The notes beneath the pieces were generated by a model. It was not told the origin of the DNA, ran no database searches, and saw only the letters and a list, made by a program, of their open reading frames with translations. The translations under genes and the position numbers were made by a program. Of a stretch of 64,000 nucleotides of DNA, positions 13,258 through 63,984 are shown piece after piece. Positions within the stretch are counted from its first letter, which is position 1; every line of letters starts with the position of its first letter. The stretch is from Yuukianura sp. NJ FZ-2021 (lineage: Eukaryota): assembly GCA_046563655.1 (NCBI GenBank), contig CM102288.1, positions 5,642,001 through 5,706,000 on the forward strand. The letters run 5' to 3'.

Positions 13258-14722
13258 CTAGCCCAGAGTTCCTATGACAACGTTAGCCAAATGTCCAAGC
13301 ACCCAAAATCGCGATGACGCCGACAGTTCTTGAGTAACGAAAGTAAGAATCCAAACTATCGCCCTGTCGTACAGCGTTAGCATCGTTTTCAATTGAGGAG
13401 CTTCAACTCCCAGTACAGAGTTAACCATAAAGTACATTATTGAGTTAAGGCGGACTATCGGTATAAATCGGTTAACTGTTGCGTCAACTACTGTGGCTGT
13501 AATCGAGAATGATTCTTTGTTGAAATACTTGATTGCTGGAACCATGATCTCTTCGTATCCTTTTCTCTGTGATTCCGTGTCATTTAGATGCAAAGCGCAG
13601 TTGAATTTGTCGTGAATTCCAAAGAGGCTGCCAACTACTGCCCAGAGATGCATATACGCTTCCATGCCTCGTGTGTCACTGGGGTCAAGCCCAAACCGTT
13701 TTGGTGAAATCGTTAGAATACAGGAAAACGAATAGTGCACTGTAGCCATGTCAAACTGGGTGACTCCAGGAGATGTGTCCAGCAACAGCTTCGTTACGTT
13801 TGGTGATGCTGGAATAGCAGCGGAGTCAGCCAGGAGAGCATTGAGTACTGCTTGACTGTGTTCAGAAAGTGGTTCCGGTGGAATTGGAAAGCTGTGGACC
13901 CTGTGCTGTTCTCCTGACACTTCCATGTGTTTGTTCCGCAATGCTGTCATGAATCTCCGTCCACGCGAATTTTCATCCAGAAGGTCCTCTTGCAAAACTG
14001 AATTCTGAGTGCTCATTGCTCGAGACATTTTTTCCAATGAGTGCTGCCTGGAGTGAAATTTTCCGCTTTTCAGTTCTACTTGAGCAATACGCGGAGGATC
14101 GTAGACAAAGAAATTAAGTGTAGACGAAAGTATCACCGCGTAAAAATTGTTTCTGGAAAAATAAATAAATGTGAGTTCGTTTTTCCTCGCAAAGCCAACA
14201 TATCGAGTGACATCAAGGTTACTCTAGCAAACAAATCGTTTTCCTTTAACAGTTTAGGCAATAAGTTCCGTTTTCAAAAAATGTTGCTACAAACAACTTT
14301 TCCCATGAAGTTGTTTATCGCTATTTTTGTTTACTTACGAGGGAAACGTTTCGACGCGATTTCGAAATTTTGAATTTAAAAATTACAGTCATCTTCTATA
14401 TGTCAAAATAAATTTTTTTTCCCGCAGTTTTGGTGCGAAACTACTGCACAAAATTTTCAGACAGACATAGACAGACAAGATCAACACATAAAGTAGCTTT
14501 CTCTACTCAATAAAACTGTACTGAAAATTCATTTTTTAGTGACCTGGCAAATAGAGCTCCTTCTCTGAGTAGTTCCCGATTTCCCCATCGATCATGTCCA
14601 GTTTCACTGATGTTGTACTCTTGTTTAAGAGTGTAGTTAATTTTGCTACTTTCTGAAATCAATTGGTTGTAAAAATATCCTGGAGCCAATTGGCCGCCAC
14701 TCAGTGCACCTTGCAGCTCCAT
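13258..14722 (-). CDS. MpaB/latex-clearing protein (DUF2236)-like heme oxygenase, tandem copy 1
   Basis: Exons 14722-14544 and 14152-13258; motifs ALRNKH, VTQFDMA and MEAYMHLWAVVGSLFGIHDKFNC match the ER-bound oxygenase MpaB/rubber oxygenase catalytic-domain family. Confidence 0.8.
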
Positions 14723-15345: not shown

Positions 15346-16796
15346 CTAGCCCAGCGTTCCTATGACAACGTTAGCCAAATGTCCAAGCACCCAAAATCGC
15401 GATGACGCCGACAGTTCTTGAGTAACGAAAGTAAGAATCCAAACTATCGCCCTGTCGTAGAGAGTTAGCGTCGTTTTCAATTGAGGAGCGTCAACTCCCA
15501 GGACAGAGTTAACCATAAAGTACATTATTGAGTTAAGGCTGACTATTGGTATGAATCGGTTAACTGTTGCGTCAACTACTGTGGCTGGAATTGAGAATGA
15601 TTCTTTGTTGAAATACTTGATGGCTGGAACCATGATCTCTTCGTATCCTTTTGTCTGTGACTCCGTATCATTTAGATGCAAAGCGCAGTTGAATTTGTCG
15701 TGAATTCCAAAGAGACTACCAACTACTGCCCAGAGATGCATAAATGCTTCCATGCCTTTTGTATCACTGGGGTCAAGGCCAAACCGTTTTGGTGAAATCT
15801 TTAGAAAACAGGAAAGCGAATAGTGCGCAATAGCCATGTCAAACTGAGTGACTCCAGGAGTTTTGTCCAGCAGCAACTTCGTTACGTTTGGTGATGCTGG
15901 AATGGCAGCGGAGTCATCCAGGAGAGCATTCAGTACTGTTTCAGCGTGTTCAGAAAGTGGTGGCGGCGGAATTGGAAAGCTGTGGACCCTGTGCTGTTCT
16001 CCTGACACTTCCATATGTTTGTTCCGCAGTGCTGTCATGTATCTCCGCCCGCGTGAGTTTTCATCCAGAAGGTCCTCTTGCAAAACTGAATTCAGAGTAC
16101 TCATTGCTCGAGACATTGTTTCCAATGCGTGCTGCCTGGAGTGAAATTTTCCGCTTTTCAGCAGCGCTTGAGCAATATGCGGAGGATCGAACACAAAGAA
16201 ATTAAGTGCAGACGAAAGTATCACCGCGAAGAAATTGTTTCTGTAAAAAAATAAATTTGTTTTTTCTTTCTCGCAAAGCCAAAATATCGAGTAACATCAA
16301 GGTTCCTCTAGCAAACAAACAAACGTTTTCCTTTAACAGTTTCGGCAATAAGTTCGTTTTCAAAAAATGTTGCTACAATCAATTTTTCCCCTGAAGCTGT
16401 TCATCGCTATTTTTTTACTTATGAGGGAAACCTTTCGACGTAATCTCGAAATTTTGAATTTAAAAATTACAGCCATCTTCTGTATGTCAAAAGAAAATTA
16501 TCTACAGTAGTTTCGGTGCGAAACTGCTGTAGAAAATTTTCAGACAGACAGACATCGACACGTAAAGTAGCTTTCTCTACTTTATAAAACTGTACTGCAA
16601 ATTTATTTTTTAGTAACCTGGCAAACAGGGCTCCTTGTCTGAGTAGTTCCCGATTTCCCCATCGATCATGTCCAGTTTCACTTGTGTTGTAGTCCTCCTT
16701 TAGAGTGTAGTTAATTTTGCCACTTTCTGCAATCAATTGGTTGTAAAAATATCCTGGAGCCAAATGGCCGCCACACAGTGTACCTTGCAGCGCCAT
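15346..16796 (-). CDS. MpaB/Lcp (DUF2236)-like oxygenase, tandem copy 2
   Basis: Same two-exon structure and motifs as copy 1 (ALRNKH, TQFDMA, HLWAVVGSLFGI). Confidence 0.8.
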
Positions 16797-17460: not shown

Positions 17461-18924
17461 CTAGCCCAGAGTTCCTATGACACCGTTAGCCAAATGGCCA
17501 AGCACCCAAAGTCGATATGACGCCGACAGTTCTTGAGTAACGAAAGTAAGAATCCAAACTATCGCCCTGTCGTACAGCGTTAGCGTCGTTTTCAATTTAG
17601 GAGCTTCAACTCCGAGTACAGAGTTAACCAAATAGTACATAATTGAGTTAAGACGAACTATTGGTACAAATCGGTTAACTGTTGCGTCGACTATTGTTGC
17701 TGGAATTGTGAATGATTCTTTGTTGAAATACTTGATGATTGGAACCATGATGTCGTCATACACTCTTTTCTGTGACTCCGTGTCATGCAGATGCAAAGCA
17801 CAGTTGAATTTGTCGTGAATTCCAAAGAGACTGCCAACTACTGCCCAGAGATGCATAAATGCTTCCATGCCTCGTGTGTCGCTGGGGTCAATACCAAACC
17901 GTTTTGGTGATATCGTTAGCAAACAGGAAAACGAATAGAGTCCTGCAGACAATTCAAACTGCGTGACGCCAGGAGTTCTGTCCAGCAGCAGCTTCGTCAC
18001 GTTTTGGGATACTGGAATGGCGGCAGCATCATCCAGGAGAGCAGCCAGTACTGTTTCACTGTGTTCAGAAAGTGGTGGTGGTGGTACTGGATAGGCATGA
18101 ACTCTATGCTGCTCTTCTAATATTTCCTTGTGTCTGTTTACAAGTGCCGTCATGTATCTCCGCCCACGCGACTTTTCATCCAGAAGATCTTCTTGCAAAA
18201 TTGAATTCAGAGTGCTCATTCCTCGAGCCAGTTTGTGCAATGAGTGCTGCCTGGAGTGAAATTTTCCGCTTATCAGTTCCGCTTGACGACCACGCGGAGC
18301 ATCGACGACCATCAAGCCAATGGCAGCCGAAAGTATCACCGCCACAAAATTGTTCCTGAAAAGAAAAATAGGTTAGAGTTTTCTTCACGGTGAAAAAAAT
18401 CGACTGGAATTTAGTAAACTGCATGGGTTTTCACATAAATTAAGCCAGTCGTAAACCAGAATGTAGAAAAGTAGCGCAAGGTGGCGCTAAAATCTCAAAC
18501 CCCTGCTCACACCAGTACACTATGATGACGATGAGGCATAATGCACCATATTTATAACAGGCAAAAGTTTACTTTGACCCGGAGGGAGGTCACTTAGTGT
18601 CAGATGATATAAACTAAAGTTGTTGATCTCAACGAGATGGAAAGAGACAGACAGACATAAAGTACCGATACATAAAGTAGCTTTTGCTAGTTGCTAAAAC
18701 TGTTTTTATATCTATTTGATATGATAATTTGTATTTAGTAACCTGGCAAACAGAGCTCCTTCTCGGAGGAGATCCGGATTTCCCCAGCGCTCATGTCCGG
18801 TTACACTGATGTTGTACTCTTCTTTTAGAGTGTAATTAATTTTGCCACTTTCTGCAATCAATTGGTTGTAGAAATATCCTGGAGCCAATTGGCCGCTACC
18901 CATCATTGTTCCTTGCAGCTCCAT
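17461..18924 (-). CDS. MpaB/Lcp (DUF2236)-like oxygenase, tandem copy 3
   Basis: Same two-exon structure; ALVNRH, TQFELS, HLWAVVGSLFGI. Confidence 0.8.
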
Positions 18925-19542: not shown

Positions 19543-20860
19543 CTAGCCCAGAGTTCCTATGACTACGTTAGCCAAATGCCCAAACACCCAAAGTCGATAT
19601 GACGCCGACAGTTCTTGAGTAGCGAAAGTGAGAATCCAAACTATCGCTCTGTCGTACAGCGTTAGCGTCGTTTTCAATTGAGGAGCTTCAACTCCGAGTA
19701 CAGAGTTTACCAAATAGTACATAACTGAGTTAAGACGAACTATTGGTATGAATCGGTTAACTGTTGCGTCGACTATTGTGGCTGGAATTGTGAATGATTC
19801 TTTGTTGAAATACTTGATGATTGGAACCATGATGTCGTCATATACTCTTTTCTGTGACTCCGTGTCATCTAAATGCAAAGCACAGTTGAATTTGTCGTGA
19901 ATTCCCAAGAGACTGCCAACTACTGCCCAGAGATGCATAAATGCTTCCAGGCCTCGTGTGTCACTGGGGTCAAGGCCAAATCTTTTTGGTGCAATAGTTA
20001 GTAAACAGGAAAACGAATAGTGTGATCCAGATATATCAAACTGAGTGACTCCAGGAGATTTCTCCAGCAACAACTTCGTTACGTTTTGGGATGCTGGAAT
20101 TGCGGCGGCATCATCCAGGAGAGCATTCAGTACTGTTTCACTGTGTTCTGAAAGTGGTGGCGGTGAAATTGGAAAGCTGTGGACCCTATGCTGTTCTCCA
20201 GACACTTCCATGTGTCGGTTCCGCAATGCTGTCATGAATCTCCGCCCACGTGAGTTTTCGTCCAGAAGATCCTCTTGTAAAACTGAATTCATGGTGCTCA
20301 ATGCTCGAGACAGTTTCTGCAATGAGTGCTGCCTGGCGTGAAATTTTCCGCTGATCAGTTCCGCTTGACGAATACGCGGAGAATCTACGACGAACAAGCC
20401 AATGGCAGCCGAAAGTATCACAGCGAAAAAATTGTTTCTGGAAAAGAAAATTGGCATAGGTTTTAAATAAAAGACGTCAAAATATTGACTAAAACTTAAA
20501 AGACTGCATACATTTTAGGGCACTTAGGGTCACATGGTCACTTAGGGTCACATGCTATACAGAAAAGAAAGGCCAGACAACATTTCTATATAACGGACGA
20601 CCAGACAGACAGACAGACAAGGACTTGAATAAAGTGGCTTTCGCTACTCATAAAACTGAATGCTTTCATGTTTTGAGTTTACAATTATTTTTTAGTAACC
20701 TGGCAAATAGAGCTCCTTCTCTGAGTAGTTCCGGATTTCCCCAGCGATCATGTCCAGTTTCACTGATGTTGTACTCTTGTTTAAGAGTGTAGTTAATTTT
20801 GCTACTTTCTGCAATCAATTGGTTGTAAAAATAACCTGGAGCCAAATGTCCGCTACCCAT
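19543..20860 (-). CDS. MpaB/Lcp (DUF2236)-like oxygenase, tandem copy 4
   Basis: Same structure. The position of the paralogous start codon reads ATT; the next in-frame ATG (MGSG) is at 20860. Confidence 0.75.
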
Positions 20861-22237: not shown

Positions 22238-23483
22238 TCAGCGAAACGTTAACAAGAGACTAACGGTAGTGTTGAGAATAACATTCCCGTATGTTTCGAC
22301 GCAGAAATCCATTTCTGAAATTGTAATAAAATCGCCAACGGTTAACACAACTGGTTGGCACGATTTCCTAAACCTACTCTCATACTTTGTACGTGGTAAA
22401 TTCCTACTGTTTTTTAAAGTGTAGTAACGCTCGGAATATACTCTAATATTTATAGCATGTTGACAAAGGACAAACCCAATGCCAAATATTAGGAGATCCC
22501 CACATGTGAATATGAGTGGTATGACAGGGTTTGCTCGCCAGTTGCTTTTGAATATGGCAAATGTAAATGAAATGATAACAAGTATGTTTCCGCAGTACGC
22601 AATTTGAATCCACCACTTTTGGTTGTCAATGAGAATTGCCATAAAAAGTTGAATTGTTCTGTACAACTGACGAAAGTTGTTCTTCTGTATGTGACTTGCA
22701 TCCGATCTTTCAATTGTGACCATTGTTTTCAACCACTGCTTAAGAGATGTACTAATTAAAAGATTACATAGCAAACTAAATAAACCCCAGAATGCAAAGA
22801 AATTGATGGTTATAGCTGCTACAACGCTCGCCAAACCTGCTGCGATAGTATGGCTTCCAATTAAGAATGACATTACACGAACTGTTAACCCCATCAGGAA
22901 CAAGCCAGTAAAGGCGGCTAAAGTAACCAGTACTGGTATATACAGAAAAGCCGGGTAAGTCGATAATCTGAAAATGTGGACATAGAGGTACACAACGTTG
23001 TCAATCTGTTCATGACAAATATTGTCACCAACGGTTTTGCCTGTTAAGCAAGAAAAATTAGTGTTGTCAAATTAAGTTTTAAGGCAATATTTTTAGTTTC
23101 AAATAGTTTGTACTAGTATATAACTAACGTATGCCGTGCTCAAGTCTGAGGAATCTGTTTAAAAAAGTAATAGCTCTCTTGTAGTCTGCATTCCAAAGTA
23201 GTTCTGAGTAGATCCCACAGCCAAAGCAGACGCCAATTGCAACTTCAGCGGCAAAATGTAAAGGCTGGCTAAGTTCCACTGTGGCTTGTAACGGAATGAA
23301 TAGAGCCAAGATGTACATAGTTATTCGAAGTAATGAAGTAATTAGTTTTACTTTTTTGAGTTTCTTGGGAGAAATCAGTTCCAGCACCCATACTTTTGAT
23401 TTCAAACGGACCAGGTTGTAGGGGCAAATGTTAAAATATTGGCCAAGTTTCAAATACTGGTTGAATTCAATGTAAGCAGACAT
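22238..23483 (-). CDS. Divergent gustatory-receptor-like (7TM chemoreceptor superfamily) protein
   Basis: Exons 23483-23129 and 23040-22238; multiple TM segments; LYRTIQL motif; C-terminal KSCQP..L..G.F...T..LLL GR/OR-superfamily-like motif. Confidence 0.75.
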
Positions 23484-25166: not shown

Positions 25167-26406
25167 TCAGCGAAAGGTTAGCAAAAGACTAATAGTAGTG
25201 CTGAGAACAAAATTTGCGTAAGTCTCTACACAGAAATCCTTTTCTGCCATTGTAAAAAATTCACCAACGCGTACTACAATAGGTTGGCAGGATTTTCTAA
25301 AACGTCTCTCATACTTAGTACGTGGTAAATTCCTACCGTTTTTTAAAGTGTAGTAACTCTCAGAATTTACTCTAAGATTTACAGCATGTTGACAAAGGAC
25401 AAACCCAATGGCAAATACTATGATATCCACAAATGTGAGTATGAGTGGTATCAAAGGGTTTGCTTGCCAATTGCTTTTGAATCCTGCAAATGAAAATAAA
25501 ATGACAACAAGTATTTCTCCGCAGTAAGCAATTTGAATCCACCACTTCTGCTTGTCATTGAAAATTGCACCAAATACTTGCATTGTTCTGTACAACTGAC
25601 GAAATTCGTTCCTTCTTATGTCACTTGTACAAGATTCTTGAAGTGCAGCGAGTGTTTTCAACCACTGCAGGATGGATGTTAACATTAAAAGAATACAAAG
25701 CATACTAAATACACCCGAGAATTGAACAAAATTGAATCCAAGAGATGCTGCAACGCTTGCTAGAACTACTGCGCTAATATGGCTACCACTTAAAATTGAA
25801 ATTACGCGCACAATTAAGCCCAGAGTGAAAAGGTCAGTTATGGCAGCCAAAATAACTAATATAGGTACATAGATAAAGGCAGAGTAAAACGTTAGTGTGA
25901 AAAGGTGGACATAGAAGTACACAACGTTGTCAATCTGTTCACGACAAATTTTATTGCCAAACATTTTACCTGTTAAACAAAAAAGAAATTAGTGTTTTGA
26001 AATTCAATTTGTAGGAAATATTTTAATCTGAAATAGTTTGTAGTAACTAACGTATGTTGTGCTCAAGTTTGAGGAAACTGTTGAAAAACGTAATGGTTGC
26101 CTTGTAATTTGTATTCCAAAGTAGTTCCGAGTAGATATGAAAGCTTCCGCATGCGCCAAGTCCAATTTCAGCGGCAAAGTTTAATGGCTGGCTACGTTCT
26201 GCTATGGCTTGAAACGGAAGCGCTTGAGCCACGATGTATATAGTTAGGCGAAGTAATGGACAAATTAGTTTTACTTTTTTGAGTAGCTTCTGTGGAACAA
26301 GTTCCATTACCCACTCATTTGATTCCATACGTACCAAATTGTATGGGCAAATCTTAAAATGTTGGCCAAATTTTAGATACTGGCTGAGTTCAGTGTAGGC
26401 AGACAT
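25167..26406 (-). CDS. Divergent gustatory-receptor-like protein (paralog)
   Basis: Two exons with the same intron position and high similarity to 22238-23483 (MSAYTEL...LLLTFR*). Confidence 0.75.
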
Positions 26407-26754
26407 TGTTGTTTGGGTGGCAGTTGGACAATCTGGGTTCAAAAATGAAGATATCTGTGGGAAATACGGTTTTATCCAAGCTGCTTCAAGCAATTCCGAT
26501 ATTAGACTGCTCTTCTTTCCGTATATTATGGAGTCACTTGTTGAAAAACTGAGATGGCCAAACATACATAGGTAATCATAACCTCTAAACTAACTTCATT
26601 ATTTCCTGTCTTAGGTTGAAAAAAAAATGTCATCAACTTTCACCATCTTGTCAATAAGGAAATTAATTTTAAGAATTCGAAAGTATGGCCAGAAAAAACT
26701 TGTAGTTGGAAAAACCCAGTTTAAATTTTTTAAAATTCAAAGACCAATTTCTCT

Positions 26755-27338: not shown

Positions 27339-29926
27339 TTATGACTTTGGTGTATAGGTGGGTGAAATTGGAAAAATTTTGAAAATGGAGAACCTGAAAT
27401 CAAAATTAGAAATATTTTATAACATTTTCAATAAAAGGCGATTATAAAATTTCTTATTAAAACTTTGATTAAAATTCACCGCTTAAGCGTAGGAGTGATC
27501 CACGGTAGTTCATAAGTAACATCACTCTCTAAAACAGTTTCTTCGTCATTCACTTGACCTTGTCCGTGAGCTTGGTTCACGAGTCCCCTCTCTGCAGGGG
27601 TTCCTATATTTTATATAATTTAAATAATTAATATAATATAACTAATTAATTAAACTTACCTGGAATTGTATTGTCCAGGACGAATCCTAGGAAGAAACTG
27701 ACGAACATTCCAGTTTGGAGAAGAATTACTAGGATTTGGTCCACTGTTTCACTGCCTGTTTGAATAGCTTCTGAATTGGCGTCCATCCATTGCGATATTG
27801 TCTAAAAAGCGGTATCAAAATTTTGAAATTCTTTTTGAAATTTGAGTTCAAAATTGTTACCAGTCCAAAGAACACTGAAAATCCAATGACGAAAATGTTT
27901 CTGGAGGAGTTGAGGTCGACGCCTTGGAGATTCGAAAGACCGACGCCAGCGACAGTTGCAAAAACGACGCAGAAGATTCCACCAATGATTGGCTGCGGAA
28001 TGCTCACAAAAATGGCGCCAATTTTGCCAATCAGCGCAAAAGTCAACATAATCCATCCGGAAGCTTGGATGACCTTCCGTGACCCCACTTTTGAAATTCC
28101 AATGGCACCGATGTTCTGTGACCTGAAAATGAGCAACATAAGTAAATAAAACAATAATTTTAATACAATTATAATAATTATTATTATTATTATATTCAAC
28201 ACTTGAAAGTGTTTACAGCGAAGTTGTTCCAGTTCCGGTTCCAAAAACTCCCGCCAAAACGCATCCAACTCCTTCAATGAAAATTCCTCTATTGATGGCA
28301 TGAACTGGAGGTGGACCGGCGCCTATTTTTCCAAACAAAAAATTTCAAAAAATCCAAAAATTTTCAAAATCCAAGTTTTTTGAGAAACCTGAAATTCTGG
28401 CACACGCGTAGTAGTCTCCGATGCTCTCTACGGTTCCAGCGATAACTCCAGCCAGCATTCCCAGAACGGCTCCGATACTTACAGTGGGCATCCCCCATTG
28501 AACTGAAATTTCAATACCAAATTTTGAGTTTGAAAAGAGATTTTCGAAATTTTGAAATAAAATTGTGTAATTACACGGATATGGGATTCTAAACCAAAGA
28601 GTGTTGCCAACAATCTTAGAGTTGTAGTCTACACGGGCTTTGTTTCCAGCAGGAATAACATCCGTCTCTGTCAGAACTAAACACAGAATCCAAGCAACAG
28701 CAATTGCGAGCAAAACCTACAAATAAATAAATATGAATAAATTAATATATTATAATAATGTGTAATTAAAATAAGTTTTTGATTAATACATTTTGAATTG
28801 ACGCACTTACTGGAAAAACTTGGAATACGGGATACCGAATACGAGATTTTGTCGGGCTGTTTGAATCAACGCTAAACGGAATTGGAATCTTCACGTTTTT
28901 ACAGTATTGTGAAAGTAGAATTATTAGCAGAATTGTCCTAAAAATATTGAAAAATCAAAGCATAAAAATAATAATTTATATTATTTTCAATAAATTATAT
29001 AAATTATAGATTAAGCATTTTTTTTTGCACTTACAGAGATGAAATCCACCAGTTTCCGGCACAGTACTTGGCGGAAACTTTAAACAGTGATAAACCAATC
29101 ATCATAATCGCTGGAGCCACTTTTTCAAAAAAAATTATATCAATTCCATGATTTGAACCCATTTACAATCAAACTTAATGTATAATTTGTGACTCTCTGT
29201 TTTACCTGCCATTGGTGTAATGTATTTCAAAATTTTGCCAACAATTCCTAGTTCCAAAAAATTCTTACTAAATTTTTGATTTTTATTTCAATCCCGAAAA
29301 AACCTTAAAAATTTTCAAACCTACCAAAGAATCCTAGGAAAACTTCTACAAGTGAGGCAACAATGATTGCTCCCTGCACTTCCCTCATCCTGACCTGCCA
29401 TAGTTCTTCCCTCTGCATGTCACTGAGCCCTTCAAGGGTCGGGGGGCACTTGAAGTGCGGTTGATTCAGAATGGCAATAGCCACTACAATGAAAGAGAAA
29501 CTCCCGCCCTGGATGATAGGCAGCCTTGTGCCGAAAGTGGATTGGAGCAGCGTCACTGCTCCAGCGATGAACATAATGGAGCTGATCATGTTGGCCTTGT
29601 TGGGGTCATTCTCATCCATGCACAAGAGTGGAGCTAGAATCACTGGAGTGGAAATGGTGGACCCAGCCATGGTGATGTAATGCTAAAATAAATAATATAA
29701 AATAATAAATAGTATAAAATAATAAATAAATAATATTCTAAAAGTAATTTCTTACTTGGAAACCAAGGAGGAAGCTCAAGTACCATGGCGGACTGTCGTC
29801 TATTTCGTAGTACAAAATTTCACGTGGGAATGACGGGTCAATGAGAGACATTCTGCGTGACCTCAACTTGACCTCTGCTTCTGAGCTCCGTCGCGGCCGC
29901 ACTTCTTCTAGTTGAATTTCAGTCAT
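27339..29926 (-). CDS. SLC23 / nucleobase-ascorbate transporter (NAT/NCS2), paralog A
   Basis: [48 protein letters not shown] signature [34 protein letters not shown]; last exon ends [10 protein letters not shown]. Confidence 0.93.
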
Positions 29927-39049: not shown

Positions 39050-40290
39050 TTAGCGAAACGTCAACAAAAGATCAACGGTTGTGTTAAGAACAAAATTTCC
39101 GTATGTTTCGATACAGAAATCTTGTTCAGAAATTGTAAAAAATTCGCCAACTCTTGCTGCGATTGGTTGACACGATTTCCTAAATGTACTCTCATACTTT
39201 GTACGTGGTAAATTCCGGCTGTTTTTCAAAGTGTAGTAACATTCAGAATATTGCCTAATATTTACGGCTTGTTGAGAAAGGACAAACCCAATGCCAAATA
39301 GCATGATATCCAACGTTGTGAATATGAGTGGTATGACAGGGTTTGCTCGCCAATTGCTCTTGAAAATTGCAAATGTAAATGAAATGACAACAAGTATGTC
39401 TCCGCAGTAAGCAATTTGAATCCACCACTTCTGCTTGTCATTGAAAATTGCATTACATATTTGTACTCTTCTGTACAACTGACGAAATTTGTTCTGCTGT
39501 ATGCCACTTGTACAAGACGCTTGAAGTGTGGCTAGCGTTTTCAACCACTGCTGAGTGAATGTAGTAATTAAAAGAATACAAAGCATACTGAATAAACCCC
39601 AGAATGCAAAAAAATTCATTGTTATAGTTACCACCAAGCTTGCCAGAATTACTGAGCTAACGTTGCTACCAATTAACATTGAAATTACACGCACCATTAA
39701 TCCCATAAAGAACATGTCAGTTAAAGCGGCTAAAGTTGCCAACATTGGTATATAGAGAAACATTGGGTAACACGTTAGTTTGAAATTGTGGACATAAAAG
39801 TACACCACGTTGTCAATTTGTTCACGATAAATTTTGTCACCAAACGTTTTACCTATTAAACAAAGTAATTAGTGTTGTGAAATTCAATTTTAAGGAAATA
39901 TTTTAATCTGAAGTATTTTGTAGTATACGACTAACGTATTTCGTGCTCAAGTTTGAGGAATCTATTAAAGAAGGTAATGGTTGCCTCGCAATCTGTATTC
40001 CAAAGTAGTTCCGTGTAGATATCAAAGCTTAAGCATACGATGAGAGCAACTTCAGCGGCAAAGTTTAAAGGTTGACTACGCTCTGCTATAAGTTGTACCG
40101 GAAACGCGTGAGCGACGATGTACATCGTTATTCGAAGTAATAGACACGCGAGTTTTACTTTTTTGAGTTTCTTGTGTGGAACCAGTTCCATTGCCCACTG
40201 TTTTGATTTCATACGGACCAAATTGTAGGGGCAAATGTTAAAGTATTGACCAAATTTCAAATACTGGCTCAATTCAGCGTAAGCAGACAT
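39050..40290 (-). CDS. Divergent gustatory-receptor-like protein (paralog of the 22238 and 25167 genes)
   Basis: Two exons with the same structure, MSAYAEL...KSCQPIAARVGEFF...LLLTFR*. Confidence 0.75.
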
Positions 40291-41427
40291 TGTTATTTGG
40301 ATAGCAGTTGGGCAATTTGAGTTCAAAAAGAAGTACTCTGTAGGAAACACGTTTTTATCACAACTGCTACAAGGAATTCCGTTGTTAGACTGTTTTCGTT
40401 TATGAATATATCGGAGACACTTCTGGAGAAAGTGACATGGCCGACCATATATTACTTCTAAATCAATCCAATTATTTCCAGTCATCATTTGAGTAATTGC
40501 CATCAACATTCACTAGTCGGTGAATGTAGGAAATAAATAAATAAATAAGGAAATTAATTTTAAGAATTTAAAAGGTGATATGGCCAGAATTCACCCAATT
40601 TAATTTTTTTTAAACAAAAACCCAATTTTTTTTTTAGAAAAGCTTGAAATTGGAAACTTGAATTTAGCGATACCTAATTCCAAGGCCTAATTCCACTTTT
40701 TGGGCGTGGTCGTTAAAACTATTTTAAAATATAGAGACTGACTGACTTGAAAAAGGAGTAGCTTACCTTCGAGTAAAAAAGATACTTTAAATTATTAAGT
40801 TGTGAAATATAAATTAATTACATTTTTAGGGAACTCTTATGAAGTAAATATTTCTCCATTTGCCGTGGACATCAACGGCAATTGGCACACAGAAGAGGGG
40901 TAAAGCTGCTTCTATCTGCAACAATTTCTTAAATACCCTGCTAGTATTCATTATGATTATGGGAAAATCATTTGTTAAAATTGTAGAAACAAATTAAAAT
41001 AATTTATATTTTTAAATTATAATGAATGTGTTTATTAACTTAATATTTTAGGTTTGTGGCCTTAAGGACTAGGGAATTATATAGTTAGTTTGATAAAGGA
41101 AGACCAAGATTCCACACAGTACAAAGTTAATTCCCCTCCATCTTCGTAATTCGGATTTGGACGAATGAGAATCGGAAGCCTTCGAGTGAAAAAGTTGTAA
41201 AATAATAAATTATTAATTAATTAACAATTAGCACACACTGCTTCAGAAGTGTTACAAGCACAAACTCCTGTGCACAGTAGGAAAAAGTCGAAGTTTTGAG
41301 ACAAGAGTTTAAATTGGATTTTCTATCTCAAAACAAAAAATCTTTTCCCACTGTGGTGGGTGTTCTCAAAATTTAGTTTCAACTCCTTTGTTCTAAAACT
41401 TTAGAAAATAAACTGCCAAGTGCTGCT

Positions 41428-55973: not shown

Positions 55974-58020
55974 ATGTACCTGAAAGTTGGAGTTTTTGTT
56001 TTGTTAGCGATTACTTTTGCCCATGGAGTTCCAGTGTTCAGAAAATCTGGAATTTCAAATGCTGTTCAAAACGTTTTGACTCAAGGCGGTGAAGATCCAG
56101 ATCCAGTCATTCGTCAACAGCGTGACTTTGTCAAACTCGTAAGTGCAATTTTGAAATGTTGTACGAAGTGCAATTGAGTTCATATAGTGTATGCATATTT
56201 TTTTCCTTTTATCTTATATTCTTTTTTATCTTTTTATCTTATTATCTTGTTTTTTATCTTAGATGTTGAAAGACGCATGGGCTGACTACGTGCAATACGC
56301 CTGGGGTGAAAATGAACTGAAGCCTGTGTCCAAGACAGGTCAATCCGGAGGGATATTCGGTGACACCAAAATTGGAGCTACAATTGTGGACAGCTTGGAC
56401 TCTCTGTACATTGCAGAGTTGACGGAAGAGTACGCAGCGGCAAGGGAATGGGTCAATTCCAACCTAGACTTTGAAGGAATCGTAAGTTCCTGACAGCATA
56501 AAGGTCAAAGGTCAAGCAGAGGTCAAGTTGAGGTCAAAGGTTAACTTTTTGGATAACTTGGTTCCAGGATGCTGATGTGTCTGTGTTTGAAGTAAATATC
56601 CGGTTCGTCGGAGGACTGCTCAGTGCCTATGCTCTGACAGGTGACGCAATGTACAAGGACAAGGCTCTACAAATTGCAACCAAACTACTGCCAGCATTTG
56701 ACTCCCCGACTGGAATCCCGTATGGGTACATTAACCTCCTCACTGGGGTAAGGCCAAAGGTCAAAGGTCAATTTTGGCATGATAACTAACATGATGTGCT
56801 TTCGTAGGCACCGGTCAACCCAAATGAAAATTCGAATTTGGCGGAACTCGGAACGCTTCATTTGGAATTCCACTATTTGTCTGAGATCACAGGAAATCCG
56901 ATTTTCGGTGAAAAAGTTGACATTGTCCGACAAGTATTAGTCGAAGCAGACAAACCAAACGGATTGTACTGGAACTACATCAGTCCCATCACTGGACAAT
57001 TCACTAACGGTAAATTTCTAAAAAATTTCAAATTTAGCTTAAAGTTTCAAAATTTTGAAAATGCAAAGGAATCAAGAATTGACGTAAACGGGCAGATTTC
57101 CACTCGAATCTGACCCTACGAAATGCAACGTCGATTTACCAATTTTCCAACAATTTTCTTTTCATAAACCGCTTCTGAATTTGAGTTTTAAAAAATTCAT
57201 TTCGTTCTCCTTTTTTTTAATCTGTGTTCTAATTTGTTCAAAACTTTTCTAAACAGAATACGTCACTCTCGGAGGTGGAGGTGACTCTTTCTACGAGTAC
57301 TTGCTGAAGGCTTCTATCATGTTCAACGATGCGCAGGCGCGTGAGATGTACGACGCAGCCATGGACGCCTTCATAGCCAACGACCTTCTCCGAACTTCGC
57401 AACCAAGTCACTTGTTATTTGCTGCCGACAAAGTTGGAGACGAAATCCAGAACAAGATGGGTCATTTGGCCTGTTTTGCCGGTGGAATGTTCGCGCTCGG
57501 AGCCACCACGACTCCGGCGGGGCAAGTTGCCACCAATCCGGAACGGGATATTGAAATTGGCAAGAACTTGACCAATACTTGTCACGAATCGTACGTCCGA
57601 GCGGCATCTCAAGTCGGACCGGAACTGTTTCGGTTCAATGAAACTCTCGGACTGGAAGCGACCACAGACATTGCTGGAGAAAAGTGGTACGGCCTCAGAC
57701 CGGAAGTGATTGAAAGTTACTTCGTCCTGTACCGAATCACAGGAGAGGCAAAGTACCGTGACTGGGCATGGGCGGCGGCACAAGCGATTCAAGCAGCCAC
57801 CAAGGTGGAGCCGGGGCGGGGCTACTCTGGAATCAAAGATGTTTACGACACGACGGAGACACCACAATTTGATGACGTTCAGCAAACATTTTTCTTGGCG
57901 GAGACGCTGAAATATTTGTACTTGATTTTCAGCACGAACGATTTGGTCAGTTTAGACCAATGGGCGTTCAATACAGAATGCCACCCACTGCCAATCAGAG
58001 CAACGAATTCACTGTACTAA
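55974..58020 (+). CDS. Class I alpha-1,2-mannosidase (GH47)
   Basis: AWADYVQYAWGENELKP, GATIVDSLD, SVFEVNIRFVGGLLSAY, AELGTLHLEF, GDSFYEYLLK, HLACFAGG, LRPEVIES, QTFFLAETLKYLYL, FNTECHPLP; five exons. Confidence 0.95.
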
Positions 58021-59307: not shown

Positions 59308-59900
59308 TGGATTTTTATTGCTAACGGTTTTTGTGTCATTTTGGAGCTTTACATGCAAGTAAACATACAAATGACGGGATGATGGGAAATGAGATGGAGA
59401 TGGTAACGCTTATCACAATGTCAAATTCAACATCTTGACAACAGAACAGCAGACTCCTGCAGTTGCATGGAGTTACTTCAAGTGAAGTTTGGTATCGATG
59501 ACTCATTTGTTCTTTAAACTGCAGTAAATTTCAGAATAAGATTTCGTGTAGAAGGTTGGCAATGGCATGAACTCAACAGCACAAATTATAAAGCTGCTGT
59601 TTATTGTAGCATGTATAGCATATCCATAATCAGAGGAAAGATGGAAGCATAGTTTAACATTTTGTGTAAGTTTATTATTCCAATAATGATTACGTTTGCT
59701 TTACCACCAAACTTTGATTTCGGAAATATTGCTGACTTAACTAAATCTGCAGCCTCTTTTCTTTAGCTGTGTCCGGAACCTAGTGAAATCACAATCCGTT
59801 TCAGTTGAACCACTTCTGGCAGTTTTCTGAAAAAAACTTTTCAAGAAAAGTTTTTTAATACAAATTATTCAAAACACTCCAGAGATTTTGTGTTACTAAA

Positions 59901-62900
59901 ATGCCTAAGCATTTTCCGGAGGCATTTTCCAATGCCAAAACACTGTCAAATTCCGGAACAAGATCAACTTCAACACGGTGAGTAACTTCATCGTGTACTT
60001 TTTAGTTCAAATTTGTCGAATTGTTATCGTTGAATCTCTTAAGTTCGGATTTGGCTAAAAAATTACAATCGTGGGTTAATACTTTTGAGAAAAAAAAATT
60101 TTTTTTTGCTTTTTCCTAACGTGATGGTTTTTAGTGTGCTAAGGATTTGCCAGCGGAAACCCAGTCTTCCAACTGTTTTCAATTTTTTTCAAAATTTCAA
60201 AAAAAAATCTCAATTTTTTTTTTAGAATTTCTTTCAAACTTGAAAAAAAAATAGAGAAAAGTTGAAAATTGAGTCTCCGTTGGGAAATTCCTACTCAAGC
60301 AAACTATAAACCATCAATTTATGAAGAATTTTTTTTTTTTTTAAATTCCTAAACTCACTAGTAATTTTTTTCTGGATTTTTTTTTCAGTCCTGTCGTGTT
60401 CGTCCAAGATGACGAAATTCCAACCTGTTCAAGACGCTTACAAAGCATGCACTTATCTTCCAATTCACTAGCACCTCCAAAATGCACTGCCATCTACGTG
60501 AGCAACCTCCATCCTTCTGTGGCAGAACATAGTTTGAATTACATATTCCAGAAATTTGGCAACATCAAATCAAGTTGTATTGCTCGGGACAAAATTTCAA
60601 GAAAATCTCTTGGATACGGAATCGTCCATTTTGAAAATCCTTCATCAGTTGGCGAAGCCATTGAAAAGTGCAGCGGCTTGATATTCAAAGAGCAGCAAAT
60701 CAAAGTCCAAGAATACCAAACTCCTGAGGAGCGTGAAAAAGCCCGCCCTTTTACAAACTTATACGTCAAGAACTTCCTTGGCGCCTTTTTTCAAGATGAT
60801 GAATTGGTCGATCTGTTCCGTCCTTATGGAACAATCACCTCATCAAAACTTGAGCGCGATGAGAATGGCATTCTAAAAGGATTTGGATTTGTTTGCTTTC
60901 AAAATCCAGAAGATGCTTTGGATGCTTTGACAAATCTGGACGGTCGCCCACTTTCCAATGGTAAACGACTCTACGTGGCCAAACATTTGACTAAAGAAAA
61001 GCGCCAAGGGTCAAGCTTTTCATCGCCTCATGCTATGCACAATGGGTTGATTGTGCCAACTTACGCTCGTACGCCTAGGCATTCAAATTTAGCATTGGGA
61101 ACTACAGCTCCAGTCACACCCGTGACAATAGTGTCACACAACAACAATTCTAAACAGAACGCCAATACAACTGTTGCTCGGAGAGGAGTTGCCATGGCTT
61201 CAAGTTCTTCAAATTTCGCGCCTCACGCGCGTACCATGGCTACTACAGCCGCAACGTACCAGCGTGCCGCTGCTTCGGTTTCCACGAGTTCGCGCCGCTG
61301 GAGAAATAACATTTACGTCAAAAATCTTCGTGGATTCATCGATACCGACCGTGAACTTCTCCATGCCTTTAATCGGTTTGGCAAGATTCTGTCGTGCGTC
61401 GTGGTGAAAAACGAAGCCGGGATTTCGAAGGGCTTCGGATTCGTGTGTTTTGAAAATCCCCTCCACGCCCAAACTGCCATAAGAGTAATGCATTTGTCGC
61501 AATTATCAAATGGGAAATTGCTGTACTGTGGAGAGGCACAAAAGAAGGAAGAGCGGCAAGTGGAACTGAGGAACAAGTTTCGACTGGACGCTGTGGCTGC
61601 TTGTTCAAATCGAATTCAGCAAGGAGCAATACTGAGAGGGGGTGCTAGACTCGGAAATTTACGTAGAGATGCAAGTGATTTATGCAACATTTGCTACATG
61701 GAGAACAACCCGTCCGATTGTGTCATGTTTGACTGCTGTCATGTTAATTGCAAAAGTTGCTTAACTGATTGGTTTACGGTGTTAATTAATGAACGCCAAG
61801 TCAACTCTATCCTATGCTTGGGTGAGAACTGTGACATGGAAATCAGTCCTGCTTTGATCAAGACCCTGGTCGGTCCGGAGTTGTACAAAAGTTACGACAG
61901 GATTTTGCTGGAAAACTTTTTGGCGACTCAATCTGATATTGTAAGAAAACAAGAAAAGGAATGAAAAACTGAATGAAATGTTTTTCCATATGGGGGGAGA
62001 TCACCAGCAAAAATATCTGAAAAAATCTGCAACGAAAAAAAATTTCTAAGCCGACTATATTTTTTTTACAGCAATCGAAAAGTCGTTGCAGAAAAATGTC
62101 AACGTAGAAAAAAAAAGTAGGTATGCAAAGATAGTTGACGGAAATAAAATTAAGTTGTTGCAATTTTGTATTGCTGAAAAAAAAACGGGCTGAAATTTTA
62201 CTCCCTTGAATTTTAAGTCCGTCTCAAAATTATTTTCTTCGACTTTTGTTTAGAGTTGCTGTAATTTTGTATTAACTCAATTTTATTTCCGCCGACTTTT
62301 TTCTGTAAGTAATTCTTTGCTTCGTTCACTTTTTTTTTCCCGTAGACTTTTCAGTTGCTGTAAAGAAATGAAGTCGATGTAAAAAAAATTTGTTTCGTTG
62401 CAGACTGGTTTAAATATTTCTGCTGGTGGTCTCCTCCATATTTCAAACTTTTTTTTTGATGAAATATAGGCTTTGTTTACTCAAAAAGTATGTTTTTTTC
62501 TGTAGATGATTTCATTCATTTTAAGTATTTCTATGTTATAGGTCCATTGCCCTACGCCAGGTTGTGATGCTTTCATCGAACTAGACTTTTCGGAGCCAAC
62601 GCGTGGTCACTGTGACCTTTGTGACCTCACTTTTTGCACTAACTGCAACGATCCATACCATGGCAACGGTCCTTGTGACGAATTTGAAAATGAAACGGAA
62701 CGTCAAATAATCCTGACACAGTATGCCCAAGGGTCTTCCGCAACTAAGCAGAAGTTGGAACAGAGATATGGGAAGCAGAAATTAGAAAAAGGACTGGAAT
62801 CGAATCTGACAAAGACATTTTTGGCCACAAACTGCAAGAAATGCCCAAATTGCAAAGCAAATATTGAGGTAATAGCAACACAATTTAATGCTAACTTGCA

Positions 62901-63106
62901 AATTCTTAAAAAATTACGGGAAAAATTAACCAAAGAAATTTGTCGGTTTCCAGAAAAATGGCGGGTGCAATCATATGGAATGCTTCAAATGCAAGATTCA
63001 TTTTTGCTGGAAATGCCTCATGGTGTCAACCCGAGATGGCGTGTATGCTCACTTTCGAAACCCCCTTGCTGCTGGGACTAGTACTGCCTGCACTATGATG
63101 GCTTAA
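59901..63106 (+). CDS. Chimeric protein: three PABP-like RRMs plus an RNF14-like RBR (RING1-IBR-RING2) E3 ubiquitin ligase, about 702 aa
   Basis: Exons 59901-59977, 60389-61940, 62542-62868 and 62954-63106 join in frame. RRMs: [53 protein letters not shown]1 CNIC...[18 protein letters not shown]...[15 protein letters not shown]2 [30 protein letters not shown]. Confidence 0.9.
61988..62441. mobile_element. MITE with long imperfect TIRs in intron 2 of the RRM-RBR gene
   Basis: ATATGGGGGGAGATCACCAGCAAAAATAT...TCTGCAACGAAA pairs with TTTCGTTGCAGA...ATATTTCTGCTGGTGGTCTCCTCCATAT; TA at both flanks. Confidence 0.75.
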
Positions 63107-63615: not shown

Positions 63616-63984
63616 TTACACATAGTGGCATTGGGCTCTTAGAGGTGTGAAAATTTCGGTCTTCCTGCAAACCAGTTTGTGTTGTGCCCAGTGATCCAAA
63701 ATCATGTCAGCTCCTTTCTCTCCAATCATAATCGCTGGAGCATTTGTATTTCCGTTGACAATCACCGGCATGATGGAAGCATCTATCACTCGGAGTCCTT
63801 TCACCCCCAGCACTCTGAATTTTTCGAAATTTCCAAGTTCCAAATATTAAAAATCACAGATTTTCAGAGAAATCACATTTTTTAAAAATATTTGAAAAAT
63901 GGCCAAAGTTTACCTCAATTTCGAATCAACGACAGTCGACTTGTCACTTTCCTTCCCCATGGCACATGTACCTACTGGATGCCT
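63616..63984 (-). CDS. GMC oxidoreductase (glucose dehydrogenase-like), last two exons; gene continues right of the window
   Basis: HPVGTCAMG...VVDSKLR | [38 protein letters not shown]: the GMC C-terminal signature with the catalytic His and Asn. Confidence 0.95.

Follow-up and report, generated by a model that had tools for sequence, protein, structure and literature searches.

The window analysed here comprises 64,000 nucleotides of contig CM102288.1 of Yuukianura sp. NJ FZ-2021, and its forward strand carries, at positions 59901-63106, a four-exon gene whose product is predicted to join three RNA recognition motifs (RRMs) of the kind found in poly(A)-binding proteins (PABPs) to the catalytic core of a RING1-IBR-RING2 (RBR) ubiquitin ligase (E3) of the RNF14/ARA54 lineage. 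When the exons are spliced in a script, the resulting frame has 702 codons with a single stop at its end; every intron has GT..AG ends and the phases are compatible, introns 2 and 3 both being of phase 0 (coordinates of all features are collected in Table 1). An earlier reading of this DNA, made from the letters alone (hereafter the sequence-only reading), had placed all three RRMs together with RING1 in one uninterrupted exon, and the IBR and RING2 in two further in-frame exons. The first of these claims is confirmed by the open reading frame, the sequence and the Pfam matches, and the second by the splice frame. The acceptor of exon 2 is pyrimidine-rich (TTTTTTTCAG). A motif of 11 residues that lies 5' of the first methionine inside exon 2 is conserved in the closest homologue, which argues for a translation start in exon 1.

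The read evidence consists of four public runs (X1 to X4) from one sample of one study, none of which is recorded as RNA. A DNA contig of 4680 nt from X1, possibly the assembly's own source, spans the entire gene, and a separate DNA contig from X3 covers positions 61538-61706, in the linker between the third RRM (RRMc) and RING1; the RRM-RING1 junction, on whose continuity the sequence-only reading depended, is covered by both. The library type of X4 is unrecorded, and its contigs fall on exons. One of them (record 30, 801 nt) joins 61940 to 62542 and approximately 62868 to 62954, with GT..AG ends at the joints, and takes the 3' untranslated region to at least 63234; another covers 59817-59970 and thereby extends the transcribed sequence 5' of exon 1 to at least 59817. 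The joined form is seen in X4 and in none of X1 to X3, and the contig has the look of a spliced mRNA, although formally it could also stem from a processed DNA copy at another genomic site. X4 gives no cover at 60035-60736 or in the RRMc-RING1 linker at 61556-61672, and the RRMs and RING1 are therefore not linked by a single transcript-like contig. The splice junctions proposed in the sequence-only reading thus hold up for exons 2, 3 and 4, while the joint between exons 1 and 2, like the link from the RRMs to RING1, has no transcript-level contig; since the former joint was not seen in the reads, exon 1 is the least certain part of the gene model.

The coding sequence contains 12 variants across the four runs, ten of them synonymous third-position changes and two protein-changing (D469A and M700L), a pattern of purifying selection on the gene. 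We also considered that the locus might be misassembled, might be a chimeric pseudogene or might result from merged gene models, a reading for which nothing but the rarity of the architecture speaks. The third RRM and RING1 share one open reading frame, DNA contigs from several runs cover the locus (those of X1 and X3 the linker itself), a spliced contig exists, the coding variants are predominantly synonymous, and the same junction occurs in a homologous metagenome contig as well as in deposited mite proteins. This explanation was rejected on these grounds, its probability being negligible, in agreement with the view of the sequence-only reading that the fusion is no annotation artefact. As a separate observation, positions 60081-60213 within intron 1 are A/T-rich, and many contigs from elsewhere in the runs align to this short stretch alone before losing similarity; in the read table the interval is marked by loose ends, a skip of 81 nt and a high summed depth, and it is probably a dispersed short repeat.

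Pfam scans of the individual exon products identified three copies of RRM_1 in exon 2 (E 2.1e-44), an IBR match in exon 3 (E 2.5e-8, 34.3 bits against a cutoff of 24.3) and an IBR_1 match in exon 4 (E 3.1e-8, 33.8 bits against a cutoff of 27), the last accompanied by an IBR_2 match above its own cutoff; for the exon 1 product there is no Pfam match at E <= 0.01. When aligned with 15 relatives, the protein keeps every Cys/His column of RING1, IBR and RING2, including all eight ligand columns of RING1 that are retained across its own family and the RNF14 rows, and the cysteine of the GGCNHM motif aligns with the cysteine column of G-C-N-K-M in RNF14-type rows; the catalytic Cys and the zinc ligands are intact, as had been read from the sequence before. 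The product would accordingly be classed as an RBR protein by its domain content, with RING1, IBR and RING2 in this order, full sets of zinc ligands and a presumed catalytic Cys in RING2. The two domains that the sequence-only reading had found missing are indeed not detected at E <= 0.1: the exon 2 product has no match to RWD (PF05773), and no match to the MLLE/PABP domain (PF00658) was obtained, the C-terminus consisting of the RBR instead.

To place the gene among its relatives we searched the exon 2 product against 5.8 billion proteins. A single match, P0001, has the same RRM-RING arrangement (45% identity over 509 aligned positions); nearly all of the other 119 matches listed are PABPs, together with two unnamed multi-RRM proteins. 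P0001 stems from L001, a metagenome (environmental) contig of 2810 nt that repeats the plan of the window gene, with the RRMs and RING1 in one exon, followed by an IBR exon (56% identical to that of the window) and a RING2 exon with GGCNHM. The introns of L001 interrupt the same codons, after RING1 and inside RING2, so that frame, introns and the complete set of domains are preserved in this orthologue at 45% identity; the linker between the first two RRMs (RRMa and RRMb) and RRMc is not conserved between the two, the alignment being gapped there and the identity low. The analysis of L001 begins at exon 2. No combination of ATG and donor on the contig gives the phase needed for the acceptor at 267/268, and its first exon is probably located elsewhere. 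The RING2 intron of L001 (2253-2330, 78 nt) has a GC..AG boundary, is in frame and contains one stop codon.

A second search, with a profile built from the two IBR exons against 1.84 billion representatives, yielded 313 proteins at E <= 1e-3. The RRM-bearing matches and their close kin all come from two trombidid mites, Leptotrombidium deliense (RWS23071.1 or P0132, RWS21940.1 or P0131, RWS21779.1 or P0130, and a 614-residue paralogue, P0281) and Dinothrombium tinctorium (RWS00385.1/RWS00351.1 or P0121/P0271, RWS01806.1 or P0123, and the 701-residue P0202). Their deposited names are automatic, for example "RNF14-like" or, for P0202 with its four RRMs, "polyadenylate-binding protein 7-like"; as the homologous sequences are already public under such names, the novelty lies in recognition and not in new sequence. 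No further member was found by a word-indexed search with the family alignment, in which P0132, P0202 and P0281 ranked first and the next 117 matches listed were PABPs, and a search of the same kind that used only the IBR exon (lengths 'longer') gave 49 candidates, none of them significant. Among the trombidid paralogues the number of RRMs varies from 0 to 4, the extra RRM of P0202 sitting where the window protein has its RRMb-RRMc linker. Several deposited models read through introns: those of P0131 and P0001 continue past the intron after RING1 (extra residues after ..DDI/..DDV), those of P0121 and P0131 run into the RING2 intron after ..NIE, and that of P0122 stops there. The public models of the family are therefore partly wrong or truncated.

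We define the mite RRM-RBR family by one or more PABP-like RRMs directly upstream of an RNF14-type RBR, by introns shared in position, after RING1 and inside RING2, and by membership of one clade, and the window protein shows each of these features as judged by alignment and tree. The family is small and fast-diverging, and is known so far from two trombidid mites, one environmental contig and this window. Its restriction to one lineage, the several divergent paralogues in each trombidid genome, their variable RRM number and their long terminal branches would suit a fast-evolving conflict or defence factor, that is, an RNA-sensing E3 directed against viral or transposon ribonucleoproteins (RNPs) and not engaged in housekeeping surveillance. 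Against this stand the polymorphism of the window gene, which looks purifying, and its presence as a single copy within the window, and we regard such a role as distinctly unlikely.

To trace the RBR half, we scanned the best 150 of the 313 relatives with Pfam. An RWD domain is present in 69 of them (23 of the first 40 and 46 of the remaining 110) and RRM_1 in three (two and one, respectively); no other accessory domain recurs in this set, and many of its remaining members are short fragments. LExRYGK and PYxHF are consensus features of these 150 nearest relatives, which upholds the earlier recognition of LEQRYGK and Y.HF..P as RNF14-like. A quick tree of 95 RBR regions unites nine RRM-RBR rows with P0130 in one clade (SH-aLRT 99), and in a more careful tree (49 rows by 259 columns) the RRM-RBR clade has a support of 100/99. 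Here the window protein and L001 pair with each other (100/99) and are sister to all trombidid paralogues (100/98). A branch with a support of 99/96 unites this clade with the RWD-bearing RNF14 proteins of L. deliense, Halotydeus destructor and Tetranychus urticae and with three unnamed rows; on its opposite side are 34 RNF14-like proteins, the named ones including nematode, nemertean and lobster sequences. The RWD-bearing nearest relatives and this placement, in a tree that holds RNF14-type rows alone, point to an RNF14-type core, as the sequence-only reading had proposed. With the root placed among the other animals, duplication of an acariform-mite RNF14 would have given rise to the RRM-RBR family. 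As a rough comparison with other RBRs, a PDB sequence search with the IBR exon returned parkin, ARIH2 and ARIH1 only weakly (E 0.2 to 10, 9.7-15.1 bits) and no RNF14 RBR chain.

Since L. deliense also retains an RWD-type RNF14 (RWS23207.1), the RRM-RBR family is a paralogue of RNF14 and not a replacement for it. This bears on the idea that the organism has no RNF14 orthologue other than this gene, which would have gained RRMs and would still act in the GCN1/RNF25 pathway. The RNF14-like core and tail would agree with such a role, and the search for a canonical RNF14 extends over this window only; the coexistence of both types in L. deliense speaks against it, as does the lack of an RWD, through which binding to GCN1 is proposed to occur in a preprint (10.1101/2022.03.21.485216). 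We consider the idea very improbable, and GCN1-dependent recruitment to stalled ribosomes without an RWD is unlikely. A side observation concerns another RNF14-type protein, the RWD-bearing P0157 (941 aa, JGI; cluster members P0402 and P0403), in which a cold-shock domain (PF00313, E 8.6e-7, 29.2 bits against a cutoff of 27) is located between the RWD and the RBR; this protein would add a second example of an RNF14-type ligase equipped with a nucleic-acid-binding module.

The RRM half points to PABPs. In both protein searches the best matches outside the family are PABPs, and the leading PDB matches are yeast Pab1 (E 1.6e-59) and human PABPC1 RRM1-2 (1cvj, E 1.3e-22), followed by HuC, HuD and PUF60. 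It is this ranking of hits on which the PABP origin of the RRMs is based, because the tree of 57 RRM domains comprises rows from PABPs and from the family only and hence assigns the type of RRM without being a test against other RRM families. RRMa and RRMb are collinear with RRM1 and RRM2 of PABPC1/Pab1 in the PDB search. When single domains are scored, RRMa is about equally close to PABP RRM1 and RRM2, and RRMb to RRM3 and RRM4, while RRMc scores best against RRM3 (58-73 bits, compared with 44-51 for RRM4) in seven of eight PABPs, the exception being yeast Pab1 (P0088; RRM4 47.4, RRM3 42.9). In the tree, RRMb, RRMc and the extra RRMs of P0202 belong to the group of RRM3 and RRM4 (support 97) and lie outside the RRM4 clade (99), and RRMa is found on the RRM1/RRM2 side. 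The alignment adds signatures of RRM1 in RRMa (..YV.NLHPSV.E, RD.I.R.SLGY) and of RRM3 in RRMc, with its FTN-type start and the trailing AQKK..RQ.EL..KF helix.

The array can thus be described as an RRM1-like and an RRM3-like domain, a variable, disordered linker of 94 residues and a second RRM3-like domain. Two hallmarks of PABPs, four collinear RRMs and a C-terminal MLLE (PABC), are not found in the window protein, which has three RRMs. The RRMs therefore appear to be of PABP type, as had been claimed, yet not a straight or truncated copy of a PABP, and the arrangement would be better explained by internal duplication and loss. The origin suggested in the sequence-only reading, insertion of a PABP retrocopy into a duplicated RNF14 gene, finds no support in an array of RRM1-like, RRM3-like and RRM3-like domains, the intron-free block being weak evidence when taken by itself.

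Taken together, the gene is best explained as a real and functional one that encodes an E3 of the RNF14 lineage in which the RWD has been replaced by three PABP-derived RRMs and which would target proteins on mRNA, a reading to which we assign a probability of about 0.6. The mechanism proposed on this basis follows from the domain logic in combination with the published behaviour of RNF14. RING1 would bind a charged ubiquitin-conjugating enzyme (E2), and ubiquitin would be passed to the RING2 Cys in GGCNHM and from there to the substrate. The RRMs, above all RRMb and RRMc with their canonical RNP motifs, would tether the enzyme to single-stranded, probably A-rich mRNA, so that targeting would occur via the RRMs in place of the RWD-GCN1 contact, and the enzyme could ubiquitinate proteins on messenger RNPs (mRNPs) or translating ribosomes with no need for GCN1. 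For the narrower proposition that the ligase is brought to mRNPs or translating ribosomes through the binding of single-stranded RNA by RRMb and RRMc, at the least, we see a chance close to even. A bolder version is tentative and, in our view, rather unlikely: an RNF14 quality-control ligase might have been rewired such that single-stranded or A-rich RNA both recruits the RBR E3 and activates it by releasing autoinhibition, so as to mark proteins lodged on mRNA, be they trapped factors, viral RNPs or RNA-protein crosslinks, in a form of translation surveillance or defence that is independent of GCN1. If this were true, it would be the first RNA-guided ubiquitin ligase of the RBR class.

Several observations weigh against the explanation of an RNA-targeted ligase. 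Ligase activity, RNA binding, RNA specificity and substrates are all predictions from the sequence. The zf-RING_2 match to RING1 stays below threshold (18.7 bits against a cutoff of 27.3), the X4 contigs give no read support for the joint between exons 1 and 2, and in the careful RBR tree the root is assumed, the rows are of RNF14 type without a non-RNF14 RBR outgroup, and the bootstrap is not fully settled. Neither RRM2 nor RRM4 has an equivalent in the array according to tree and alignment. In PABPs it is the pair of RRM1 and RRM2 that confers poly(A) specificity, and RRM3-type domains are less poly(A)-specific. As the RRM1-RRM2 unit is not preserved, poly(A) specificity of the window protein is doubtful, and given the properties of RRM3-type domains the targeting of poly(A) is uncertain. 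Position 5 of RNP1, mostly aromatic in PABP RRM1, is Ile in RRMa and Val in L001 (in the two PABP RRM1 rows aligned it is Y in one and S in the other), and the counterpart of RRMa in trombidid paralogues is degenerate, as in FLGHGTVVY. Finally, P0131 has degenerate RRMs next to an intact RBR, and the deposited models of P0123 and P0130 have no RRMs at all; these models may be partial, or the RRMs may be dispensable in the family.

The state of the RRMs also bears on a different role for them, in which they would serve mainly for docking to proteins or for mimicking PABP, contacting PABP partners or ribosomal and translation factors, so that protein contacts would direct the ligase in the way they do for RNF14. 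PABP RRMs do bind proteins such as eIF4G and the PAIPs, and the non-canonical RNP1 of RRMa, its degenerate counterparts and the intact RBR beside eroded RRMs in P0131 all count in favour of this role. The RNP2 and RNP1 motifs of RRMb and RRMc ([IL]YVKN[FL] and KGFGFVCF), with canonical aromatics in both the window protein and L001, count against it, and the last RRM is likewise canonical in every RRM-bearing paralogue; such aromatics are the usual signature of RRMs that bind RNA. Protein docking as the main function of the RRMs is therefore unlikely in our estimate, if somewhat less so than a role in defence.

Comparison with described proteins helps to delimit the RNA-targeted ligase proposed here. 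RNF14, whose yeast counterpart is Itt1, shares with the window protein the RING1-IBR-RING2 order, the G-C-N-x-M context of the catalytic Cys, the linker motif E-x-R-Y-G-K and a tail of the form [PV]-Y-x-H-F. It differs in carrying an RWD where the window protein has three RRMs, and the family in the window is a lineage-restricted paralogue that exists beside a retained RWD-RNF14, at least in L. deliense. Human RNF14 is described as an RBR with Cys417 as the catalytic residue and an N-terminal RWD proposed to bind GCN1 on stalled ribosomes, and recent work makes it the core of a pathway for removing trapped translation factors from such ribosomes (10.1101/2022.03.21.485216). PABPC1 and Pab1 provide the best RRM matches; in contrast to them, the window protein has three RRMs and not four, lacks the MLLE and has a 94-residue linker inserted in its array. 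The trombidid proteins P0132, P0281, P0202 and P0271 have RRMs and an RNF14-type RBR and fall into one clade with the window protein (100/99), but are only 28-42% identical to it and possess one to four RRMs, the first of which is degenerate.

RNA-binding ubiquitin ligases (RBULs) join an E3 to an RNA-binding domain and thereby link RNA fate to ubiquitination; examples are CNOT4, which combines RING and RRM, and the PABP-associated MKRN1, both of them plain RING E3s. The human RRM-bearing RBULs listed in PMC5707401 are of the RING type. As simple RING E3s they have no catalytic cysteine, whereas the RRMs in the window are joined to the thioester-forming RBR class. RBR cores joined to RNA-related modules are known from the 'Helicase' subfamily of the DEAH11 type (PMC2904391). 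In addition, the ESM Atlas rows for P0132 include a fungal cluster with IBR and RRM_1 (70 members, RRM_1 in 74%, Basidiomycota the commonest phylum), and other fungal clusters combine IBR with zf-CCCH or with KH_DEAH11; with scores of 0.80-0.82 these rows are leads only. Unlike the window family, the helicase RBRs and the fungal fusions are not represented among the 150 nearest relatives and are, as far as seen, not derived from RNF14. The fungal clusters are probably independent RBR fusions, and the combination of RRM and RBR as such is probably not unique; in the protein searches made, PABP-type RRMs on an RNF14-type core are confined to the mite-centred family.

A literature search, which left supplements outside its scope, found no paper on an RRM-RBR protein or on the trombidid RRM-RBR family, nor a described RBR-type enzyme with RRMs. 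The main text of the trombidid genome paper (PMC6275457) contains no occurrence of RRM, IBR, RING or polyadenylate, and its orthogroup tables could list the family. The opinion of the sequence-only reading that the architecture is undescribed thus stands with respect to papers, but not with respect to sequences, homologues having been in GenBank since the trombidid mite genomes and the fungal IBR and RRM_1 cluster offering a lead. The family amounts to a natural domain-swap experiment, with selection maintaining the RNF14 catalytic module in a new union with RNA-binding domains of PABP type. Such an exchange of targeting modules suggests that the RNF14 core can be given new destinations, and the protein is a candidate, amenable to testing, for direct RNA recognition by an RBR ligase.

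Table 1. Coordinates of the RRM-RBR gene, its predicted domains and motifs, and neighbouring genes in the window.
Feature	Position	Strand	Description
Exon 1	59901-59977	+	ATG start; first 25 2/3 codons; consensus donor ACG/GTGAGT (slash marks the boundary); phase fits exon 2
Exon 2	60389-61940	+	unbroken frame of 517 codons; N-terminal motif, RRMa, RRMb, linker, RRMc, RING1
N-terminal motif	60408-60440	+	11 residues, conserved in L001 (DDGQRPTCSRYL)
RRMa	60483-60746	+	residues 58-145; PABP-RRM1-like; RNP2 IYVSNL, RNP1 LGYGIVHF
RRMb	60750-61019	+	residues 147-236; PABP-RRM3-like; RNP2 LYVKNF, RNP1 KGFGFVCF, canonical
RRMb-RRMc linker	61020-61301	+	about 94 residues; low complexity, Ser/Thr/Ala-rich
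RRMc	61302-61580	+	residues 331-423; PABP-RRM3-like, including trailing helix
RING1	61683-61832	+	C-x2-C ... C-x-H ... C-x2-C ... C ... C; presumed E2-binding domain
Intron 2	61941-62541	+	601 nt, GT..AG; X4 contig record 30 joins 61940 to 62542
Exon 3	62542-62868	+	IBR, helical linker with LEQRYGK, first RING2 Cys pair
IBR	62545-62676	+	exon 3
LEQRYGK motif	62755-62775	+	IBR-RING2 helical linker, exon 3
First Cys pair of RING2	from 62833	+	exon 3
Intron 3	62869-62953	+	85 nt, GT..AG; joined across in X4 contig
Exon 4	62954-63106	+	rest of RING2, presumed catalytic Cys, RNF14-like tail, stop TAA
Presumed catalytic Cys codon (in GGCNHM)	62966-62968	+	exon 4
YAHFRNP tail	63044-63064	+	RNF14-like, exon 4
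GH47 (alpha-mannosidase) exon	57253-58020	+	glycosyl hydrolase family 47; upstream flank; Pfam E 2.4e-80
GMC oxidoreductase C-terminal exon	63616-63846	-	downstream flank; Pfam E 4.8e-10
Xanthine/uracil permease fragment	27729-28322	-	
Four tandem paralogous ORFs (open reading frames)	13258-14223, 15346-16296, 17461-18372, 19543-20514	-	about 300-320 aa, very similar
Hydrophobic protein genes (three or more paralogues)	22238-23071, 25167-25988, 39050-39868	-	multi-pass-looking
ORFs upstream of hydrophobic protein genes	26047-26589, 39931-40509		

The remainder of the window holds further genes, among them two sets of paralogues. The hydrophobic proteins may, judging by their composition alone, be encoded by lineage-specific chemoreceptor-like genes; the one paralogue scanned (22238-23071) has no Pfam match. 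The array of tandem open reading frames gives a weak match to MPAB_Lcp_cat only (E 0.0036, below the Pfam cutoff), and looks like a lineage-specific gene array.

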